DNA of 64,000 bases from Paecilomyces variotii (lineage: Eukaryota), in assembly GCA_004022145.1 (NCBI GenBank), contig RCNU01000002.1, one strand, 5' to 3'. The stretch's first letter is position 1, and each line of letters opens with the position of its first letter. A program made the position numbers and the translations under genes. The notes beneath the pieces are model-generated. The model was not told the DNA's origin, searched no databases, and was given only the letters and a program-made list of their open reading frames with translations. Below are positions 4,217-63,900 of this stretch, piece after piece.

Positions 4217-6180
4217 ATGTCTCTGCCCGGTTTAGAGCTGTCTGAACCGTCGGCGGAGTCGCAGTATGTTCCCGCGCCGCCCACGCAGATCAATCTATCA
4301 AGAGGATCGGAGTGGAGATTCGAAGTCGCGTTTGGAACGACAGTAAAGATTAAGGTGTGTTTCTCCTTTCATAGTTCTTTTGGTTTATCTTGTTGTTTTG
4401 TCTGAGCTCTGGCTATGCCACTCACATGCGCGCGGCGCTATACATGTGGCATCGAAGCTAGGAGCACGTGGATGAGCCTGACCTGTCGTATCAGGCGAGG
4501 AATTCACTGGATGGAACTTGAAAAGGCATTCAGCATCGCTAGAATGGAATGGTTTATGGCTGACTTGTCTCGCGCTCTCTGAGTGAGGTGTGTTTCTAGC
4601 TCCTAGATGGCACCGCAGAGCTATTTGGCACAGAGCTTGCCGCTTCACGAACATACACTTTTACCGGCACAAAGGCTGCGATATATACCTGGCATGGATG
4701 TACACTCGAGGTGAGCGCGGGGGAGGCACCTACTGCCACAAATGGGTTCGCTTCAGGAACCACGAATGGGGCTGCTCCTGGCCAAGGGACGGGAGGGTGT
4801 CAGAGTGAATACACGGCGGAGGAGACACCCATGGTGGAATATGCCAATGTTCACTTTGCGCTGGAGACAATGAGACAGGAAGCGAAAGCTGCAGGCAAGG
4901 ATGGACCCCGCGTTCTGATCTTGGGGCCTGAGAATGCGGGAAAGACGAGTCTGGCGAAGATATTGACGAGTTATGCGACCAAGGCTGGGCGCCAGCCAAT
5001 TGTCGTGAATTTGGATCCAGCGGAGGGCATGCTCAGTGTGCCGGGGACATTGACAGCTACAGCTTTCCGGACAATGATTGATATTGAGGAAGGATGGGGA
5101 AGCAGTCCGATTTCTGGACCGAGTCCTATCCCGGTCAAGCTGCCCCTAGTTTATTTCTATCCGATGCAAAATCCACTTGATGCCGATGGTAGCATATACA
5201 AGCCTATTCTCTCCAGGCTAGCGCTCTCTGTGACGGGTCGGATGGCGGAGGACGATGATGCTAGGGAGTCTGGCATTATCGTGGACACGCCTGGAATCCT
5301 GAGCCAGGGCAAGCCAGGTGGAATCGAGATGATAAACCATATTGTCACTGAGTTCTCTAGTATGTACCCTTCAAAAAAGCCATGGCCCAGTGCAGCGCGA
5401 GCTAACGGAACAATAGTCTCGACCATTCTCGTCATCGGTTCTGAGCGTCTTTACAGCACCATGGTCCGAAGCTACGACAACAAGCCAACATCAAGCGCCT
5501 CCGCCGTGGCCTCAGATGAACGCATTTCAGTCATCAAGCTATCCAAATCCGGTGGCTGCGTCGACCGCGACGCCACTTACATGAAGTCCCTTCGTGAAGC
5601 TCAGATCCGAGAATACTTCTTCGGCAGCCCAATCCCATCCACGGGCTCATCAGCACTCCCTGTCTCCGCTACATCCTCTACCACCGTGACTCTCTCACCT
5701 CATGCACAACAGCTTGACTTTGACTCCCTAGCTGTATATAACATCACTGTCGTGACACCAGACGAAGAGGAAGATGAATACGACCCATCTCAATTCGGTG
5801 CCTCCGATGCCTTCTTACCAGGAGGTATCAACGATGCCGAAACATCATCCACACGAGATGAAAGCACACCTATCCCAGGAATGAGCGGTACGCCATCAAC
5901 CCAACCAACCACCTCGAACACCACCGTACCTCTGAAGAAAGTACCTTCCCCGCCACCACTTTCCCTCGAAAACACCCTCCTCGCCATCACGCACGTCCCA
6001 CAAAACGCCCCTCTATCCCAGATCCGCGACGCCAGCATCATGGGCTTCGTCTACGTCGCCGACGTCGACGCCGATCGAGGCAAGATCAGAGTCCTCGCGC
6101 CCGTGGGAGGTAGAATCCCCGCGCGAGCGATCATCTGGGGCCGGAAATGGCCCGGTGAGGTGGTAGGTCTGGTAGGATAG
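4217..6180 (+). CDS. clp1: mRNA cleavage/polyadenylation factor, polynucleotide 5'-kinase Clp1
   Basis: SEWRFEV, GTAELFGTEL, P-loop GPENAGKTS and KSGGCVDRD motifs. Intron 4355-4599, plus a probable in-frame intron near 5360-5416. Confidence 0.93.
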
Positions 6181-19027: not shown

Positions 19028-20499
19028 ATGCCATCACCTTCGAAATCCGACAGCCGCAAGGCGCCAAAGCTGGACGGCGACAGCTTTGTTGCATTCGATC
19101 ATGCTGCAGCTGGACAGTAAGTTTTCCCTATCAGTCTAGCTTGCAGCTTTGGTTTGCGTCACCTGGCGATACTGTACTTGCCAGATTTGAAATGGGCTGA
19201 ACAACCGCATATAACTGTCTATACATAGATTCTATGTGCTTTGAAACTGACGAGTTACAATCTCATAGTGATGGCGTTCGTTGTGATCCGTCTGGCTCTT
19301 TGATTGCGAAACCCTGCACGCGTGAGGAGATCGCCTTCTATGAGTCAAGTTCTCTTCATCCCCATTTCAGGGCTTTTATGCCTACTTTTATAGGAACTTT
19401 GTCATCTGCAGACCAACAGCAGTCCCAGGCTCTCGCCCAAGCTCAGCAGGCGGGGGCTATAGTTGTTCCGCCATCTGACGCCCCATCCTCGTCAAATACA
19501 CCAGTCAGTTCAGGAACTTCTCTGCCCGTTACCGACGCATCAGGGCAGGGCACCCCTATCCAGAAACAGGATCCCTGGGTTCCATCGGGCGGGCGTAAAC
19601 TCGAAACAGGCCTGTCAATCGTTCTGGAAAATGTAGCATCAGGCTTCAAGCGGCCAAACGTGTTGGATGTGAAACTCGGGGCCCGATTATGGGCAGATGA
19701 TGCTCCCCCGAGCAAGCGAGCAAAGCTCGATGCTGTTTCTAAGGAAACAACAAGCTCGACGTTAGGATTTCGGATTGCTGGAATGAAGGTCTGGACTGGT
19801 GGAAAGAAGGAAGGAGAAGAGGAAGAGCCTCTAGGTCAGACAGACCCGTATGCCACCAAATACGAGGCGTCTGAAGGCAAGAAAGGGGAAGTCATTGAAA
19901 AAGGGGGCTACAAACGATACGACAAATGGTACGGTCGATCCTTCAACGCTGAAAATGTGAAAGAAGCCTTCGAGACTTTCTTGGCAGGCGCAAAAGCCAG
20001 CAAGGAAGACCGCTCGAAACTAATAGCGCGAAGAATCGCGGAGGAGTTAAGATGTGTGCAGTCTGTCCTGGAGGCGGAGGAGAGCAGGATGTACTCCGCC
20101 AGTGTTCTCATTGTTTACGAAGGTGACTCCGAGGCCATGGAGGAAGCTCTGGAATACGAGAAAAACAGGAAAGATGATGAGGAGGAAGACGAAGAGGAAG
20201 ATGAAGACGGGGAGGAGTTTACCCTCCCTCAAGACGGGTCCCTGGAAGTTGTTGATGTCAAGGTCGGAGACCAGACACTAGCTCAGGGCGCCCTCAAACT
20301 CGATATTGATCCCGGAACCGCAGCAACAGAACTGGGGGATCTTCAAGCCGATGATGAAGAGGAGCCACCCAAGGTTCATGATCTCCGTCTGATCGACTTC
20401 GCGCATGCGAGCTGGACTCCTGGACAAGGGCCAGATGAGAACGTGCTTATGGGCGTGAGAAGCCTTGTAAAAATCATGGAGGATCTCGCGAAAGAATAG
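19028..20499 (+). CDS. ipk2: Inositol polyphosphate multikinase (Ipk2/Arg82, IPK family)
   Basis: Spliced AAAGH|DG across intron 19117-19268, plus PNVLDVKLG, SASVLIVYEGD and LIDFAH motifs. Confidence 0.9.
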
Positions 20500-22218: not shown

Positions 22219-23315
22219 TCATCGGTAAAACTCCCCTCTCTTGATGGTGACTCCGTATTCGGCGACGGCCATACCAAGGTCTTCCATGGTGAGCACCGTC
22301 CGTCCTTGTCCGGAACCACCCTGACCACCACCACCAAATCCGGGTCTCTGGATACCGAGATGGGTGTTGGATTGTCCACTCTTCCCCTTGGCTGCATCTC
22401 CAGCAGCTGCACCTGCTGCGCCTCCGGGACCTGCTGCGTTAGGCACCAGGCCTGCAGCAACGTTAAGACCACCCATAGGGTTGTTTGCGCTGGAACTATT
22501 AGAAGAACGGATTCGCGAGTACTGGTACGCATCCGCAGCGATATCAGAGATAAACTTCTGCGTAGCCAAGGCAAGTAGACGCGCTAGATGCGGAGGGGTC
22601 TGATTCGGACCATGACCTGGCGGAGGAAGGCCAGCAAGAGTCAGATAATGCGCGGTGACAGCATCAGGAATCTATCGAAACATGGTTAGTCTTCGCAAGA
22701 ATTTTTGTGATATGAGCAGAAAGCTTGAAGACGGGATGAGAGCCATGATCTTGTCAGAAGGAAGGCAACGGAAATATCCACATGGTTTTTGCGCTTTTCG
22801 GAACAGGTCTGTGAATTTACATCCGAAATATTTCATCATATGATCAGGCGATACAAGTTGCAGGGCAACGTATAGATGGGATAGGTATAATTGAGGTGTA
22901 ACCGAAGGGAAAGCAAACGTGCAACACTTACAATAGGCGCGTACTCGTCCATCTTCCCGAGGAACTCGCGCAGGCTGGTTTCCTTCTTCGTTGGCGGTGG
23001 CGCCGGTGCAACCGATTCTACAGGAAGACCGCCAGCGGCCGCTGCTGCAGTTGGGTCTGCACTTGCGCTTCCATTCTCACCAGCGTTATTAGTATTGGTG
23101 TCGGTTCCAGCCATGTCAATATCCTGCTCGATGGAGGCGTCGATATCTTCACCCCCGGCAGTGCCAGGTTCCTGCTTTGGCACTGGATCTTGTGTCGAGT
23201 TTGCAGTATCTGCTGTTGTTGACGACGGAGCAGTCTCCTGTGATTGTGTCTGTGATGGGGGTGCAGGCTGTGGTGTCGCTGGAGGCTGCGACGTGGAGGC
23301 TGAGGGTTCAGCCAT
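22219..23315 (-). CDS. taf10: TFIID/SAGA subunit Taf10
   Basis: [44 protein letters not shown] and [15 protein letters not shown] motifs. Single 260-nt intron 22931-22672. Confidence 0.95.
22746..22846 (-). ncRNA. Intronic double-guide box C/D snoRNA (snR56-type D' guide and snR52-type D guide)
   Basis: On the minus strand: TGATC stem; box C ATGATGA (22839-22833); guide TCACAGACCTGTT before D' CCGA; C' ATGTGGA; guide TGCCTTCCTT before box D CTGA (22757-22754); GATCA stem. Both guides are complementary to conserved 18S rRNA segments. Confidence 0.9.
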
Positions 23316-23925: not shown

Positions 23926-26661
23926 TTACTGGCCCAGTTGCATATTAGGATCCACAGGATCCTGGTGTTGGGCCTGTTGTAGGAGGTCACCGTGGACTTC
24001 CTGACCCAGAGTCTGCATCAAGTTCTGCTCAGCAGTCTGGTCCATCATTGCATGGTTGTCTGCATCCTGTGGGAGACCTGGAGAACCAGACATATTAGAA
24101 ATGGTGTCCTGTCCTGGTCCAGGTGCAATATGAGGGGCGTGTGCACCAGCAAGAGCCATCATCCCTTCAATTCCCTCCACATGCGCTTTGTCTTCTTCTC
24201 CTCGCTTCTTCTCTCGCTCGCGAGCTTCGTTCTTGGCAGCCTGTGCAGGGGCGCGGGTCTTGAGCTCTCCCGTGACAAACTTGAGATAATAAGGCACTTC
24301 GATACCACTTTTCAAAAAGAAGAGTTTGAGGTTGCGTGCTTTGTCCTTGAGTTGAACTTGATTACGATCTTTTAAGGACTCGTTAATCGTACCTCCCGGT
24401 CCGAACATGGCGAGGATCTGGCTCCAGTGAGGCCCCTTCACCCGATCCAGTCCAGCCATCAAGGCATTTTCTTCCTCAGTGGTCCACGGCCGACGTTGAC
24501 TGGGAAGGCCTGCCCTACGGCTACTCGGGGAAGACTTGGCAGTGGCAGCCATACGAGCACGTTCATATAGTATTTGAGTAGGCTGTGACTGTGAATAGTG
24601 AGGTACACCAGGCATGTAACCGTAGTTTGCCGCCGCAGCATTGGCTCGAGCCGTAATCGATGCAGCGTTGGCGGCGGGGTTGTATTGCTGGAAATTGGCC
24701 TGAAGAGGACTTTGCTGGAATGTAAGTTGTTGAGGTTGTTGAGGCTGCTGATGGTATCCAGGTGGAGTAGGGCTGCCCTGGAATTGTTGCTGCATAGGCA
24801 GGCCGTGCTGTGGCGGAGTTGGTTGAGGGATTGGGGTCCCGTGAGCGGAGTGCTGCTGCTGGGGGGGCTGTTGCATCTGCTGAACCTGCTGAGGTTGTTG
24901 CTGATGCTGATGCTGTTGATGATGTTGTTGCTGCTGCTGCTGTTGTTGTTGTTGTTGTTGCTGCTGCTGCTGTTGTTGCTGCTGCTGAGACTGTTGAGAG
25001 CGTCTTAGCCCGTGGCCCTGCAGGGCGATCTGTGCCGCTCGCGCTGCTCGTGCGACAAGATCTCCGTGCACATTGCGATCAACTGGAACTTCCGGAGGCT
25101 GAGGAGCCACCGAGAACTGAGTTTCAAGGGGAGCGCTGGGTTGCTGCTCCTGAGTCTCGCTGGTGGAGGGTTGGCGCCCTTTCGCAGTCTTCTTCGTCTA
25201 TCTCCCGTTAGCCGCATTCTGAATGGAGTGCATGAAAGGTTGGAGTGACAGACCTGTTGGTTATTGATGGCATCAAAATTCTTGCTAATGTAAGAGCTGA
25301 GATCTCTCAGAAAATCTTCCCAATGGTATTTTTCTGGCAATGCCTTCACTGCTTCTTCGTTGTTTATTTCACCAAGAAGAATATCACGGCGTGAACGGGC
25401 ACGCTTGACAAAATCTGCTTCACTGGGGGCAAGCTGCCTTGTGCCCGGCCGCTTGGCAAGCAGGCGCTGCTCCAGATCCTCTGGGAAGAGGTCGTAGAGC
25501 AGCTCAGTCCTCGTACGTTCCCGGCTGTTCATGGACGCGATAAATGCTTGGGTCTTAAGTTCGAGGAACAATGCACCCTGAACCTTGAGAAGACGACTTC
25601 CCTCCGACACAAAGACATCGAGGAAGTGGTCATTCAATTCGGCGAAGCTGATGTCCTGAGTCCCAAAGATACTTGAGACAAAGGAAGCCAGGTTTGCCTT
25701 CCTGATGATATCCACTTGAGAAGGTTCGGTCAGATCGAGTTCTGTCGCAGACAGGAATGCAGTTTTCGTAGAATAGACTCTCTTAGTATGATCAAACAGC
25801 GAACGCATGGTTGCATAAGCCTGCCCATTCTCTGAGTCGGGCTCAGACACGAACGAGGTAATATCCTGGTAAGAGGATTTGGCCAATAGGGTCAGGATCT
25901 GGGTCGACTATTGATTGGGCTACAATCAGCGTCCAAATATCGTGGAAGTGTGGCATCTCTACCTACCAGATTGTCAAGAATTGGCAGACTCTGGATCTTG
26001 AGATGAGAGTTGGCTTTGAGATAAACGACGCCTTTAGAGGCAGGTGCTCCAGCATCATTTGTCTCTTGCTTCTCCTTTTGACTAGCCGCGAATTGTTCTT
26101 CTACACGCTCTGAATGACCTATAATATTAGATATCACTGCAGCCACATCTTGCGCAGGATCAGGATTTCCCGCGGGAACCGCACCGTTGTCAGTCCCGTT
26201 TTCACCTTGATCGTGACTGCCATTCAGATTCTCCCCGGCCTCAAGCGCCCCCGTATCCAGTGCTGAAGCCAGTTCTTCCTCTATCTGGTTTCCTGCAGTG
26301 ATATTGTTCTCCTCCTTGGTCGGGAAAGAGGATGCATCAAAGGTATCAGGGCCGGAGGTCCGGCGTTTCTTGAACGCCCTTGGGGAGAGAGATCCATCGT
26401 CCTCATCAAGCGAATGCGAGACCTTCCCGAATTCTGCCATTGAAGCAAGTTAGCATGATGCTGTATCATTATGTTGTAGAACTGCGCGGGATAGAGACGA
26501 GAAAAAGTGATGCGTTCACCTGAAGCCGGGAGACAAGTAACAGAGGAAGGTAGCTACAGCCACGGCCACTCACCATTATTTTCATCAGGCACGGACGAAG
26601 TCGGGAAGGTAGAGGACGTCTTCCCATCCGAAGACAACCTCGAGCCTCGTGTACTTACCAT
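23926..26661 (-). CDS. tbf1: Telomere-repeat-binding Myb/telobox protein (Tbf1-like)
   Basis: Exon 1 26661-26574 starts in a GCCGCCATGG context and its phase-1 intron joins the 182-aa ORF; further introns near 25965-25909 and 25252-25199. [12 protein letters not shown] and [11 protein letters not shown] domain; Myb [16 protein letters not shown]...[17 protein letters not shown]. Confidence 0.9.
24890..24993 (-). repeat. CAG/CAA trinucleotide tract encoding polyQ in Tbf1
   Basis: Mixed (ctg/ttg)n run on the + strand; about 21 consecutive Gln followed by a Q/H-rich stretch. Confidence 0.95.
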
Positions 26662-41238: not shown

Positions 41239-43035
41239 ATGTTTAGCAGGTTATTTCCTCGTGGTCTTTCCTGTATCCATTCGAGTTCTGCGCTTAATAT
41301 TGCACGACGCAACCTCCACATCTCCTACCAGCCAACGAACCAGCTTCCTCCGCGGAATGCGCAGTTCCGCGCCGCAGTGATGCCTCACCCTGCAGATAGA
41401 CCACGACACGAATCGAAGAGACGGAGAAAGGCGGCGGAGAAAGCAAACAAAGGAAGCGGCTTCGATCAGGTCCTTCAGCTTGATATCGACAACCTGCTGA
41501 AGAAGAGCAGAGAAGAGAAGGACCAAGATGGCGAGCAAGCGACTGGCGCAGTGCAGCTGCCCGAACCATTTACAGAGATTGAAGTGAAGATCACAGAGCT
41601 GTCCTCGACTGGAGATGGTCTTGCGCTCACTGATAACGGCGACCATGTCTACGTTGTGCCATTTACCGTTCCTGGAGACAAGGTCCTCATCAAGGTCATC
41701 AGACACTTCCGAGATCTTTCCTATAGCACGGCGGACTTTCTGAAGGTTATCGAACCGGGCCCTCAAAGGAACGATTCTCTTATAGGATGCGGCTATTTTG
41801 GAAAATGCTCTGGGTGTCAATTGCAAATGCTGCCGTATCAGGAACAACTCGCCCACAAGAAGAAAATCGTCGAGAAGGCATATGCCAACTTTTCTGGTCT
41901 GATCCCGGAACTAGTGCCTGCTATCGATGATACCTTTGGCTCTCCTCTGCAGTACGGCTACCGGACGAAGCTCACGCCGCACTTCACCACACCTGGAGGA
42001 TTCTCCCGGAACAAGAAAAACAATAAACCTAAGGACCCTGCTGATATTGAGATCCCCCCAATTGGATTCACAATGAAGAACCGACGAACCGATATGGATA
42101 TTGAGGATTGCCCTCTGGGAACAGATATCGTGCGCAGGGGTCTTAAGAGGGAAAGGAAGAGGGTTATAGAGAACATCCAGGAGTTCTCCAAGGGAGCCAC
42201 GCTCCTTATGCGTGAGTCTACGACACGCGTGAAGAAGGAAGCGGCGAACAACAAAGAATCGAACGGGACAGCAAAGCAACCGGTCGAACAGAAGGATGGC
42301 CAAACGTCGAATTCCAAAGATGATGAAGACGTTATCCGTATTGAGCACCCGGATTATATCGAAGAGAAACGCTGCATCACTGACAACAATGCTACCTCTA
42401 TCGAATATATCGACGATTTCATCTTTACGAACAAAGCTGGCGCTTTCTTCCAGAATAACAACTCCATCCTCTCCGGTTTCACCGAGTACATCCGCCAACA
42501 CGTCCACCCCAAGAATCCCCGCCCCGACGAGAAGCCCATCAAGTATCTCCTCGACGCATACTCTGGCTCTGGCTTGTTCACCATCACCCTGTCTACCCTC
42601 TTCAAATCCTCCCTAGGTGTTGATGTTGCAGGCGACTCCATTGCCTCCGCACGCCAGAATGCCCGCGCCAACAATCTCAGCAACACCGGCTTCGCAGCCG
42701 CAGATGCAACCACCCTCTTCAAGGATGTCCCCTATCCTGCCGACCAGACACTGCTAGTCATCGACCCTCCCCGCAAGGGCTGCAGTGATGACTTTCTCAA
42801 TCAGCTACTCGAGTACGGCCCCAGACGCGTCGTGTACGTGAGCTGTAACGTCCACACGCAGGCCCGTGATGTCGGTGTCATGGTCCAAGGAGACAAGGAG
42901 GGCAAATGCCGTTATGAGATCGAGAGTATTCGAGGCTTTGACTTCTTCCCGCAGACGGGACATGTCGAGGGCGTGGCCATCCTGAACCGGGTACATGAGC
43001 CAACTGCTGCTCCGACTGTTTCCATCGAGTCATAG
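41239..43035 (+). CDS. trm2: tRNA (uracil-5-)-methyltransferase Trm2 (TRAM domain + RlmD/TrmA fold)
   Basis: CGYFGKCSGCQLQ, YGYRTKLTPHF, AFFQNN, DAYSGSGLF, IDPPRKG, YVSCN and DFFPQTGHVE motifs. Confidence 0.93.
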   Translation: MFSRLFPRGLSCIHSSSALNIARRNLHISYQPTNQLPPRNAQFRAAVMPHPADRPRHESKRRRKAAEKANKGSGFDQVLQLDIDNLLKKSREEKDQDGEQATGAVQLPEPFTEIEVKITELSSTGDGLALTDNGDHVYVVPFTVPGDKVLIKVIRHFRDLSYSTADFLKVIEPGPQRNDSLIGCGYFGKCSGCQLQMLPYQEQLAHKKKIVEKAYANFSGLIPELVPAIDDTFGSPLQYGYRTKLTPHFTTPGGFSRNKKNNKPKDPADIEIPPIGFTMKNRRTDMDIEDCPLGTDIVRRGLKRERKRVIENIQEFSKGATLLMRESTTRVKKEAANNKESNGTAKQPVEQKDGQTSNSKDDEDVIRIEHPDYIEEKRCITDNNATSIEYIDDFIFTNKAGAFFQNNNSILSGFTEYIRQHVHPKNPRPDEKPIKYLLDAYSGSGLFTITLSTLFKSSLGVDVAGDSIASARQNARANNLSNTGFAAADATTLFKDVPYPADQTLLVIDPPRKGCSDDFLNQLLEYGPRRVVYVSCNVHTQARDVGVMVQGDKEGKCRYEIESIRGFDFFPQTGHVEGVAILNRVHEPTAAPTVSIES

Positions 43036-54661: not shown

Positions 54662-57269
54662 ATGTTGGAAATGGCCCAGATAAGGGACCAAGAACATGCT
54701 GCGTACCTGGCGCGGGAAGCTGTTAAGTCGATAGATGCGGGTAAGCGTGAGGTCAGTAACAAATCGCCCTTTTGACTCTTCTTTTTTTTTTTCTTTTCTT
54801 GCGTCAGTCAGTCATGCTAACACCCCGCGTTTTGTATAGGTTGCCTCGCAATACATTCGCCAAGCTATTGCGATAGCTCCAGAAAACCCGGAGGTGAAAT
54901 CCTCCTTTCTTCGAGTGAGAGAGGACGAAGAGAATGGCCATCCGCTACTAGACCTCTGTCGCCGCTACACTACACAGAAAGATGAAGATGCGGGAAAGGA
55001 AGCCGGTCGTTATCTCCGCACAGACGGACTTAAGCCCCCAGAGAACACGGCACTCGAGTGTCTGAAACTCATCTTGGCGGAGAAGCCTGGAGATTTGTCT
55101 TCTGCACAAGATGAGATCATATCCGGTCTGGTGCGACAAAGTATCAATGTGCGGCGCTTCTTTGCGAGTGAGCTCCAGATCTCCGTGACTGCGTTTTTCG
55201 ACGCCATCTACGATAGAGGAGATGGGGCCGCTGTCTGTTTAGATACGATCGTGTTGGATCCGACGCTCTGGAAGACCGAAGATTCCCGGTCGCATGCCGA
55301 GAGTGAACTCTTCCAGCTCTTCATTGCCAAGCTGATGGAGTCGGGCCATGATCTCGATGGACGCTCTCTGAAAGGGATCGCGCGGCTGCTGGCTGTCGAT
55401 GCAGAGAGGCTACAGCACCTAGTGGATGACGAGGAGTTGGATGTGATCATTACCTCGCTCGATAATAGACTTCCGCTTGAAATACGAAGCCAGGCTACAT
55501 TGTCTGTGGCCAAATATCTCGAGGCATCCAAGGATGTTGGCCAGAAGCAGTTTTCCAAAATCATATCAGCCAAGGTGAAGAAGGGCCGCGCAGAAGACTT
55601 GATTATTGCCTTCTCAGCTGCCGCGGCCGTATTCCCCGTGGCACCCAATGCAATGGCTTCCCTCTTTCTCACAGAAGGCTTTTTGCAGTCCGCCGTGCCA
55701 CTGGTCTCTCGCCAGGTGAAAAGTCGTAGCGTGGAGATTGCAATGCTGGAGTTGTGCAACGCCGCCTGCATCGATCGAGCCTGTCGGGAGGCGATTTCGA
55801 AGCATTGTTCGGAGTGGCTCTCCCACACGCTCACCAACGGTAGCAGCGAGAGTTCTGATCTAGCGGCCGTCGTCCTGGCAAAGATCCGGGCTTCGGAACC
55901 GAGTGATCCTTCCAAATCGAATGGTAAGGCTCAGGGTGATGATAACAGCGTGCAGGAACTTGTCGATCGATTTAAGGGACTGATGTCTGAACCCAAGGTC
56001 GAGAACCCCCAGAACACGGTCGAAGGTCTGGCGTACTCCTCCGTCAAACCTAAGGTCAAAGAACAACTGGCTAAGGATTCTTCTTTTCTGAAGAACCTCT
56101 TTGGTTTGATCCGCCAAAACATTGGGGACACCTCGGTGGTATACGGCGGCTTGATGATTATATTCAATGTCACCAAATATCTCCCCAACATGTCTGAGGA
56201 ACAGAAGAAAATGTCCCAGCTCAAGGCTTATGCCAATGCTTCTGGGCCGTCGACAGGGCCGGATCCTCTCGATGACGAGGAGCATGTTACTGCACGCTGC
56301 AGCGCCGTGATCGAAGCCGGCATTGTGCCAGTACTTGTTGAGTGTACGAAAAACAACCTCGCCCAGACCTCTATCTCCGACTTGGTCAGCAAGATTCTCT
56401 TAGCTCTTTCCAAGAACCCAAAATCTCGCGGCAAGCTCGCACAGCAGGGTGCCGTCAAGCTGCTGCTTTCTATTCTGGCGCCTAAGAATGGAAATTCAGA
56501 TCCTGTCATGAATGAAACGACCCAAGCCGCAGCTCATGCTTTGGCCCGGATCTTGATTTCCGTTAACCCATCCCATGTCTTCCCGTCTTCCGGCCTTCCA
56601 CAGATCACGTCCGCTGTCCGGCCGCTGGTGATGTTGCTCAGTTCGCCAGAGAGTTCTGCCGATCAGCCACGCGACCTTCTGCCTGCCTTCGAAAGCCTCC
56701 TCGCTCTGACCAATCTCGCCTCATCCCCAGATCCCAGTGCAGCAGAGGCGATTGTGCGTCACGCTTGGTCTACACTGGAAGATCTGCTCTTGTCCAATTC
56801 TCCATATATCCAGCGAGCCGCCTGCGAGCTGGTTTGCAATCTGATGACCTGCGAGTCGGGAGTAGGCAAGTTTGCTGACGGTTCGAAGCGAGCCGCCCAG
56901 CGCCTCCACATACTGCTTGCTCTTACAGACGTAGAGGACGTTGCCACGCGGAAAGCTGCCGGAGGCGCCCTGGCCATGCTGACCGAATTTGATGCCGCTG
57001 TGGCAGCTGTCCTCGATCGACCGCGCGGCGTCAACCTCCTGCTGGGGTTGTGCCAGGAAGAAGATGACGGGCTTGTCCACCGGGGCATCGCCTGCATCCG
57101 CAATCTAACGTGCGCGTCAGGCGATATCGGGGTCCGCGGGAGAGAGGCAGTCAGACGGAGCGGAGGGATCGACACTTTGAAGGGCTGTCTCAGGCGGACC
57201 ACCAACCCGGCGGTGCTGCAGGCCGGGGTTGAGGCGCTGAAGCCGTTGGTCGAGCAGAATGCGGGGTAG
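54662..57269 (+). CDS. she4: UCS-domain myosin chaperone (She4/CRO1/Rng3)
   Basis: ARM/UCS motifs VEGLAYSSVKPKVKE, RGKLAQQGAVK, ALARILISVNP and FESLLALTNLAS. Intron 54752-54839; start at ATG 54662 or 54671. Confidence 0.9.
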
Positions 57270-60951: not shown

Positions 60952-63900
60952 ATGAAGTTTGGTCGCAACCTCCCACGAAACGTCGTCCCAGAATGGGGCT
61001 CCTCGTACATCAAGTACAAGGCATTGAAGAAGCTGATCAAGCTTGCCGCGGATGACATGAAGGCTGGCAAAGAGCCCGACCTTGCTGGTAAACACACAAA
61101 GTTCGACTTCTCTCAATAGATCAGTCCTTGCTAACTTATTGTTTCAGGATTCTTCTACTCCCTTGACCGGAATCTCGAAGATGTCGACCATTTCTATAAC
61201 AAGAAATTCGCAGATTTCTCTAGGCGCCTGAAACTGCTGGAGGATCGTTTCGGACATTCGAGGGTTGCGGGGCAGCGGTTAGAGTTGGAGGATGTCGAGG
61301 ACCTTCTAGCTGCGTTGTTGGAACTACGTGGTCAACTGCGGAAGCTACAGTGGTATGGAGAGGTAAACCGCCGAGGATTTATTAAGATCACCAAGAAGTT
61401 AGACAAGAAAGTCCCGGGTGCTCAGGCACAAAAGAGATACCTCGAGGCGAAGGTTGATCCCGCACCTTTCGCTACGAATACTCGTCTATCTCAAGCTCTG
61501 AAGCACATCAATGACTGGCTATCGGTGCTGGGCGACCAGAAAGTCCAAGACGACGCCAGCTCGACCCATTCTTCTCTGTCTCTAAAGAAGGTCTCCTCGC
61601 GCCCGATCCTCAACCTTCCCTCGAGCGTTCTCGTGGCGGTCGATGAGGCACTTCGCAAAGATGACACGCATGTCCTTCTGGAACTGCTCGAGACTCTCAA
61701 GATTGCGGCGGATGAGATGGGTGACAATATCTACCCCAAGGTTCTGAAAAACCTCTTGCAACGAGCTATTTTTACGCGTGCGAAGTCCTCTGTTACGGTA
61801 TTACTGGACAGAATTGATGACCTCGAAGAGGACGACGATATTAACAAGCGGAACTGCATCCACCGTCTAGTGATCTCCATTGGAAGAGCGCAGTCTACCT
61901 CGGATTCAGAGCAGGCCGCTTCTATGGTCCTGGACTTCCCTCTGGAAACGTCCAACTACATCACCCCGGCTGCTCCTCCTACCTTGCAGCCGCCTCGCGC
62001 TGTCGTGAAGGAGACCAGTCAGCCACAGACCCTAGACAGAGATGATCCGTCAGTCTCCCTGCTACAGCACCTGCTAGACCATCTTCACCCTCGCCAGAAA
62101 AGCGCATTACTTGCCAAGGACCTGTCGGGCCGTACACCCCTTCATTACGCTGCCCAGTACGGATTCAGGGTTGTCTGCGAAGTTATCATCGAGCATCTCC
62201 AGGCATGGGATATGTTTGATGTTAGCGAGGGTATCGACGGACCTGCGTGGCAAGATAACGAAGGATGGGCGCCTCTTCACTTAAGTGTGGTGGGCGGACA
62301 TCCACTTACCACTCGGACTCTGCTCGATGCAGAGAATTGGAAGGGCTCTTCCACGGAGAAGGCTGCTATCCGCAAGCACGTCTCCAAGTCAAGCGCCGTT
62401 CTTGCGCTGGCAACCAAGGCGAATTTCGTTGATATTGTCCAGCTTCTGGTTGATGCGGGCGTTGACATCAACTATCAGGATGAGCAGGGTGAAACTGCTC
62501 TTCATATTGCGGCTCGCTTCGGGCACGATGAATGTGCAAAGATCCTCCTGGAAGGCTCTAATGACCAGAAAGCAGACACTGAGCTTGCCGAGAACACCTA
62601 TTCCTGGACGCCCCTGTTCATCGCCTGTGTTGATGGTTCACTCAGTGTGGTAGAATTGCTCATTGAGGCTGGTGCCGACCTTGAGCGATTAGATTCTTCC
62701 GGATGGACGGCGAAGGAACATGCCTCTCTCAGAGGTCATCTTCCCATTGCTCGACGTCTTGCTGAGATTAACCCTACACCTGTTGTCACTGAATCGGAAC
62801 CAGTCAATGTTCCTGTGCCGGCATCTTCTTCTCCGCCGCAGTCGTCGCTTATTGAGCGGAAGTCCAATTCCAACGTGAATTCTGCAAGCGGGAGTTCTGG
62901 GACACGGAGTCCTGAGCCTATCAAGTCCTTCGGACATCGGTATCTTACCGATGAATCCATGATTTTGGTCAGCTTGGGCACTATGGACATGCGCAAATCT
63001 GTTCCCGCCGTCAGCCTCGATCAGATCCCCGTTTCCAGTGCCCATTCCACTCAACTTGACACCGCACTATCTATTGTCGTGTCGGCCAGTGGAGCTCACG
63101 GTGAACCGGAGCTGATCGATCTCCCCATCCAAGACAACATCTCTACGGAGCCCATAGTTTTCCACTCCGCAGATCCCACCAAGGTTAAGCTCCTGTTTGA
63201 TTTGATCCCTACATACGCTGGTTCGAAAGACAAGGTCGTCGGACGGGGTGTTGCTTTGCTTTCTAGTATCAGACCCAGCATCGGCTCTGATCGCATTAAC
63301 CTGAAGGGAGATTCAACCGTCCCCATCGTGGCCGCGAATACGCTGGAGGTCATCGGTTCTGTCACCTTCAACTTCCTCGTCATCACCCCGTTTAGCCACC
63401 CAAACATGTCGATCACTGAGAACCAGACGTATTGGAGAACAATGACTTCAACTATGGTTATCGGACATCGAGGTTGGCTTCCTATTTCTTTTCTATCCCT
63501 GCTTTCTCTCCTAACCCATAAATTTAAGGTCTCGGAAAGAACTTTGCCAGCCGGAAGTCTCTGCAACTCGGAGAGAACACTGTTCAGGTAAGATCCTCTA
63601 CACCAAACACCCGGGTTACTGATCTGACCATATCTACAGTCCTTCATTGCTGCGGCGAATTTAGGAGCATCTTATGTTGAGGTGAGTTCTCCATTCCCGT
63701 ATGAGGAGTATTCAAAAAAAGAAAACCGAAACGCTGACCAACAATCTCCAGTTTGGTACGAAATCGTAGCACTGCGCCTATTGCAAGAAGATAACTAATA
63801 CAGTAAAAAGATATTCAACTGACTAAAGATCACGTTCCCGTTATTTATCACGACTTTCTCGTCAGTGAGACTGGAATTGATGCTCCAGTTCATACGCTTA

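Follow-up and report, generated by a model that had tools for sequence, protein, structure and literature searches.

We have identified a box C/D snoRNA on the minus strand of a 64-kb window of Paecilomyces variotii DNA, the window being the whole stretch that was analysed. The snoRNA lies within the only intron of the TAF10 coding region. It is very probably an intron-encoded methylation-guide snoRNA that belongs to the snoZ13/snR52 family of fungi and has the two targets already known from Aspergillus. Its D guide is predicted to be the snR52 guide for yeast 18S Am420, and its D' guide the snR56/U25 guide for Gm1428. The finding adds an unannotated but standard snoRNA to the genome and matters little beyond annotation. 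The modest new point is the host, which is TAF10 here, SHMT elsewhere and usually an LSM14/Scd6 intron.

Methods

The window was scanned against Rfam at the family thresholds, and a relaxed Rfam scan of positions 22650-22950 returned 8 matches with E values up to 10. Relatives of the snoRNA were collected by scanning metagenome contigs for box C, followed by 45-75 nt and then by the Am420 guide with its box D, which gave at least 117 loci and at least 121 pattern matches. Within these, copies of the scaffold were defined by a regular expression in which box D' is CCGA, CUGA, CUAA or CCAA, followed by GCGC or GCGT.

The set of SSU rRNA sequences consisted of eukaryotic 18S contaminating prokaryote assemblies, retrieved with the 13-nt target and a universal SSU primer (at least 38 loci). 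One of them, L154, is a complete eukaryotic SSU (RF01960, 1789 bits, positions 82-1877) and was used as a stand-in for the organism's own 18S. As an observation in its own right, eukaryotic 18S rDNA occurs in at least 38 assemblies that are filed as bacterial or archaeal (L118-L155), and in L154 a complete 18S-5.8S-LSU unit is found in a contig filed under Pseudonocardia.

Transcript evidence was drawn from assembled contigs of four RNA runs, designated X1, X4, X6 and X9. In such contigs intron-derived RNA is visible, and the ends of a mature RNA of ~95 nt are not resolvable from them.

Identity and fold of the snoRNA

The snoRNA matches RF00335 (snoZ13_snr52) at 101.3 bits against a gathering score of 47, with an E value of 8.3e-20 and over model positions 1-101 of 101. 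RF00335 is the only Rfam family that reaches its threshold in the 64-kb window. The scan had been proposed in a preliminary description of this intron, which also reported boxes C, D', C' and D together with a TGATC/GATCA stem and gave no strand. Every one of these elements is present and had been placed correctly, and the strand is minus (Table 1).

Box C is located near the 5' end and box D near the 3' end, and the UGAUC/GAUCA terminal stem brings the two together, as is required of a box C/D snoRNA. The internal boxes D' (CCGA) and C' (AUGUGGA) deviate from consensus. The centroid fold keeps a single helix, the terminal stem, which is extended to 8 pairs with one bulge, and the stability of the fold is no better than that of shuffled sequences (z -0.51). 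Fold stability close to that of shuffles is usual for box C/D RNAs. The box C/D snoRNA in the TAF10 intron is genuine.

Table 1. Positions of the snoRNA, its elements, the host gene and neighbouring genes in the window.
Feature	Position	Strand	Basis or remark
Box C/D snoRNA, snoZ13/snR52 family	22745..22848	-	Rfam RF00335
Terminal stem, 5' arm, UGAUC	22842..22846	-	Pairs with 22746-22750
Box C, AUGAUGA	22833..22839	-	Read in sequence
D' guide UCACAGACCUGUU	22802..22814	-	C22806 is the fifth base upstream of D'
Box D', CCGA, non-canonical	22798..22801	-	Read in sequence; directly after D' guide
Box C', AUGUGGA	22777..22783	-	Read in sequence
D guide GUUGCCUUCCUU	22758..22769	-	U22762 is the fifth base upstream of D
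Box D, CUGA	22754..22757	-	Read in sequence; directly after D guide
Terminal stem, 3' arm, GAUCA	22746..22750	-	Pairs with 22842-22846
TAF10 exon 1, coding part	22932..23315	-	128 codons from ATG; open frame, contiguous with exon 2 in spliced contigs
TAF10 intron, 260 nt, GUAAGU...ACUAAC...AG	22672..22931	-	Joint 22671|22932 in RNA contigs
Putative branch site ACUAAC	22685..22690	-	Sequence; 56-61 nt downstream of snoRNA 3' stem
TAF10 exon 2, coding part, TGA stop included	22219..22671	-	Pfam PF03540 (TAF10), 78.5 bits; stop read in sequence
Clp1 (neighbour)	4831-6177		
Inositol polyphosphate kinase (neighbour)	19234-20496		
Trm2-like tRNA methyltransferase (neighbour)	41239-43032		
UNC45/She4-like (neighbour)	55335-57266		
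GDE1-like (neighbour)	61717-63588		

The TAF10 intron and its transcripts

The host gene was recognised as TAF10 by its second exon, which lies well above the PF03540 cut-off of 28 bits; exon 1 (22932-23315) matched no Pfam family. Splicing is documented in two of the four RNA runs (X1 and X9, from different studies), in which contigs cross the exon joint and omit exactly 260 nt. The same two runs also contain intron-only contigs, covering 22678-22888 in X1 and 22695-22931 in X9. Contigs of X4 and X6, which belong to one study, cross the intron unspliced. A 260-nt TAF10 intron with box D about 82 nt from its 3' splice site had been proposed from the letters of the DNA, and both claims agree with these data: from the end of box D to the last intron base there are 82 nt, and from the 5' splice site to the start of the snoRNA 83 nt. 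The ACUAAC at 22685-22690 is presumably the branch-site motif.

In X9, a separate contig of 250 nt starts exactly with the first base of the intron (22931). It matches the intron as far as 22695, 9 nt short of the putative branch A, and then continues with 13 untemplated A in the RNA sense. It would fit an excised, adenylated intron intermediate, which we regard as a weak hint from one contig in one run. Its depth is 197 and that of the spliced mRNA contig 51, figures that are no evidence of abundance, as contig depth cannot rank the parts of a gene. The other genes recognised in the window are ordinary fungal housekeeping genes. Two proteins of the window have exact counterparts in 90% clusters in which every named member is from Paecilomyces variotii / Byssochlamys spectabilis.

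Guides and 18S targets

On the stand-in SSU, the D' guide forms 13 Watson-Crick pairs with its fifth base opposite G1424, and the next best site gives 7 pairs. The D guide forms 12 pairs, including one G-U, opposite A416; an alternative site at position 455 also offers 12 pairs, but five of these are G-U. The spacing of the two target sites is 1008 nt, equal to yeast 1428 minus 420. The pairings with 18S at Gm1428 and Am420 that the preliminary description had put forward are reproduced on the stand-in. Both guides have the arrangement expected of box C/D guides, namely at least 10 base pairs to rRNA beside D or D', the fifth guide base lying opposite the target. Twelve SSU loci extend at least 1050 nt upstream; nine of them contain the 10-nt A-site target there, seven at a distance of 1007-1011 nt. 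In the three other long loci (L121, L134 and L147) the 10-mer was absent within 1500 nt with one mismatch allowed.

The guides were also compared with those of established families. The second-best match in the relaxed Rfam scan was to snR56 (RF01188, 42.8 bits, E 7.6e-5), whose consensus guide ACACAGACCUGU plus D' aligns on our D' guide, and the latter matches the consensus guide core ACAGACCUGU. The D guide is identical to the D-guide consensus of snR52 (RF01195), U83B and U83D, with which only the D guide UGCCUUCCUUCUGA is held in common. Judged by these pairings, each guide places its fifth position opposite the base that is methylated in yeast. Yeast snR52 is recorded as guiding 18S-A420 and 25S-U2921 (PMC9418376), and snR56, U25 and snoR19 are described as having the G1427/1490/1431 site in common (PMC3511168).

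Two further sequences in the window that resemble the guides (25247-25258 and 25694-25708) fall in coding-like DNA without box context and were set aside as chance matches.

Relatives of the snoRNA

The scaffold of the window snoRNA is common to 84 loci (86 copies) among the 117 listed; the other loci listed are shorter variants, other eukaryotic snoRNAs and chance matches in bacterial-looking DNA. In an alignment of 69 sequences (A1), the D' guide region is variable. Little or no variation is seen in box C, CGGAU, D', GCG, C' and the D guide, some of these columns, including the TGATGA of box C, being fixed by the search pattern itself. Within box C', a G and the final GA are invariant in these 69 sequences. 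Their internal helix is closed by C-G in 61 cases, by U-A in 4 and by U-U in 4. Box D' is CCGA, CUGA, CUAA or CCAA in all 87 scaffold copies, as required by the regular expression.

The Gm1428 guide was found in 9 of the 117 loci listed. All 13 bases are present in L008, L112, L036, L038, L050, L071 and L078, where L112 is identical to L008 over the full length of L112, and 12 of the 13 are present in L041 and L113. Counting the window, this guide is kept in three intron hosts, and the spacers and flanks vary. When the whole window intron was compared with its homologues, similarity was limited to intron positions 83-190, the snoRNA occupying 84-187. The closest intron matches among the loci listed are L113 (93.5%) and L050 (91.7%).

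Two further features of the family were observed. Tandem snoRNA copies lie 130-330 nt apart in L064 (1189-1297 and 1406-1514), L117, L013 and L027, and in L064 and L117 the tandem copies differ slightly in their D' regions. In L007, L037, L052, L065 and L111, a small GC-rich hairpin of the type GCCUUCGGGC replaces the D' guide region.

Host genes across the family

An LSM14/Scd6 Sm-domain exon lies just upstream of the snoRNA, on the same strand, in 60 of the 117 loci listed (53 of the 84 scaffold loci and 7 short variants), and Pfam PF12701 was matched at 61-86 bits on three such exons. The usual family home is the intron right after an LSM14/Scd6-like Sm-domain exon, as in L002, L005, L009, L050, L071, L078 and L113. 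Our literature search met no mention of LSM14/Scd6 as host for an snR52-family snoRNA and, among the papers listed, none of a TAF10-hosted snoRNA. A tblastn search with both TAF10 exons placed TAF10 beside none of the homologues in the 117 loci listed (best E 0.72), among which those from L081 onward have 300-nt flanks only, so that a distant exon could be missed.

Other hosts were recognised at single loci or small groups of loci. In L116, the scaffold (289-393) occupies an intron of a serine hydroxymethyltransferase (SHMT) gene, with an exon piece on either side (135 and 118 bits). In L084, the scaffold (289-395) may sit in an ATP synthase gamma gene, the match being below the Pfam cut-off. 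In L008/L112, L036 and L038, the snoRNA is found in a GUAAGU...CUAAC...AG intron of an unnamed gene. L008 and L036 alone extend far enough to reveal its neighbourhood, and in both this gene lies immediately downstream of eRF1.

Among the matches listed, five of the nine loci with the Gm1428 guide are in LSM14/Scd6 introns. A tree was constructed from the LSM14 exon pieces of at least 60 aa (41 distinct of 47, shorter pieces being dropped), and on it those five loci make up one side of a branch supported at 90/94, not starred. Because they group in this way, the double guide looks like a property of one fungal lineage and not of the whole family.

It may be, although our doubts somewhat outweigh our confidence, that the double-guide snoRNA left an LSM14/Scd6 intron in the Paecilomyces lineage and now resides in the TAF10 intron as the only copy. 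If so, the move would belong to a series of at least four host changes in the family (LSM14, SHMT, the unnamed gene beside eRF1 and TAF10), in each of which only the snoRNA body of ~100 nt was carried.

Discussion

Following what is generally known of intronic snoRNAs, the RNA would be transcribed within the TAF10 pre-mRNA, freed from the excised 260-nt intron and trimmed exonucleolytically at both ends to ~95 nt. Snu13, Nop56, Nop58 and Nop1 would bind the C/D and C'/D' motifs, protecting the snoRNA and assembling the snoRNP. The 13 bases of the D' guide would then pair with the conserved 18S stretch containing yeast G1428, and the 12 bases of the D guide with the stretch containing yeast A420, and the equivalents of A420 and G1428 would be methylated. 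In yeast, the two jobs are divided between snR56 and snR52. Deletion or replacement of the TAF10 intron in Paecilomyces variotii may also remove an rRNA methylation guide.

Whether the TAF10 copy is the working one has to be considered in light of a near-identical relative, represented by contigs of X4 and X6 (two food-fermentation RNA runs), which differ from the window at 11-12 of 1201 bases. At 22835 these contigs have G for A on the plus strand, which turns box C into AUGACGA; X1 and X9 are unchanged at this position. Five further differences, four base changes and a TA insertion, fall in the other 156 nt of the intron. The box C change could reflect relaxed constraint on the TAF10 copy, which might then be a redundant or decaying paralogue, with a working gene elsewhere (for example in an LSM14/Scd6 intron) or with a separate snR56-type RNA for Gm1428. 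The prevalence of LSM14 as host in the loci listed, none of which has TAF10, also points that way. So do the two other Gm1423 guides, CD19 and CD41, that Neurospora is recorded to possess (PMC2780460), which make guide redundancy likely in general. We consider a paralogue of this kind unlikely all the same, since the window copy retains every box and both guides intact and matches the Rfam model over its full length. Moreover, the snoRNA body is 91-94% identical to its closest homologues while the rest of the intron is without similarity, and intron-derived contigs are present in two RNA runs.

A second alternative is that only the D guide, directed at Am420, works, and that the D' element is a leftover, given that D' is CCGA and C' is AUGUGGA. 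Besides these non-canonical internal boxes, the family at large can be cited for this, as the remaining 77 of the 86 scaffold copies from metagenomes have a D' region without relation to the Gm1428 guide (no more than 9 of the 13 bases agree), so that loss of the guide is tolerated. Neurospora CD42 is likewise given Am417 alone by Liu et al. (2009, PMC2780460). The distribution of guide identities is bimodal, however, with agreement at 12-13 of the 13 bases or at no more than 9; the guide is therefore intact or absent, which argues for selection where it is present and not for drift. Its complementarity to 18S is perfect over 13 bp, and the identical guide recurs in seven other loci across different hosts. 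CCGA is, moreover, one of the four D' forms seen in the scaffold copies, albeit by definition of the scaffold, and both sites were predicted for Aspergillus Afu-200 (Joechl et al. 2008, PMC2377427). We thus judge a snoRNA with a single working guide to be quite improbable, slightly more so than a redundant paralogue. That an ordinary intron should contain these boxes and complementarities by chance deserves practically no credence: single short motifs do recur by chance, as the near guide matches at 25247 and 25694 without boxes illustrate, but a chance origin is excluded by the full-length RF00335 match at its E value, and the scaffold is common to at least 84 metagenome loci.

The preferred reading remains an intron-encoded snoRNA with two guides, and its position among known systems can be described as follows.

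Comparison with known systems

The closest published counterpart is Afu-200 of A. fumigatus (AM921928), which was represented by 2 clones and a 91-nt cDNA and is assigned to intron 3, in sense orientation, of Afu1g12390 in Table 1 of Joechl et al. (2008, PMC2377427), with 18S Am415 and Gm1422 as predicted targets. Afu-200 and the TAF10-intron snoRNA are both intronic, sense-strand C/D RNAs with an equal pair of predicted sites, the likeness being one of predicted targets, and Paecilomyces variotii and Aspergillus belong to a common order, Eurotiales. They differ in that Afu-200 is found in the third intron of its host and the present snoRNA in the only intron of TAF10. The two-target RNA is thus not new, as the same site pair has been in print for Aspergillus since 2008, and it was already in print there that one RNA can carry guides which are split in yeast between snR52 and snR56. 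The preliminary description had allowed that the combination might be catalogued, and it was right to do so in view of Afu-200 and of clan CD_19, into which snoStrip merged snR52 and snR56 because of target switches (Canzler et al. 2018, PMC5824354). The TAF10 host is the only feature for which we found no parallel, and its newness depends on the identity of Afu1g12390, for which our literature look-ups found no gene name. Hosts as different as TAF10, SHMT and LSM14/Scd6 illustrate the mobility of intronic snoRNAs among host genes, which was described in general terms by Hoeppner and Poole (2012, PMC3511168).

For Neurospora crassa, Liu et al. (2009, PMC2780460) give 18S-Am417 as the target of CD42, the snR52 homologue, and Gm1423 as that of CD19 and of CD41/snR56. 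CD42 has 92 nt. Like the window snoRNA, it is intronic and has a 12-bp D guide, in its case for Am417; unlike the window snoRNA, it is listed with a single target.

The window snoRNA and RF00335 have a common scaffold of box C, CGGAUGUAAA, D', GCGCAAAA, C', UUUCCG and the Am420 guide. The RF00335 consensus is variable in the D' guide region, where the window member has the Gm1428 guide, as do the nine loci noted above.

Comparison with yeast snR52 (RF01195) reveals an identical D guide and box D, with Am420 as the target. The window snoRNA nevertheless scores 19.4 bits against RF01195, below the threshold of 45; its D' region fails to align, and the yeast D' guide to 25S-U2921 is absent from it. 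The yeast snR52 gene is a free-standing RNA polymerase III unit and is not intronic.

The relationship with snR56, human U25 and plant snoR19 (RF01188, RF00054) is of the converse kind. These RNAs and the snoRNA described here agree in the D' guide core that precedes D' and in the conserved G that is targeted (PMC3511168), and the window snoRNA falls short of the RF01188 threshold (42.8 bits against 54), the guide being in common and the scaffold different. The yeast snR56 consensus of RF01188 contains UAUUGCCuUUUuUUuCUGA before box D, a degenerate look-alike of the Am420 guide. This look-alike would fit a descent of snR52 and snR56 from one double guide.
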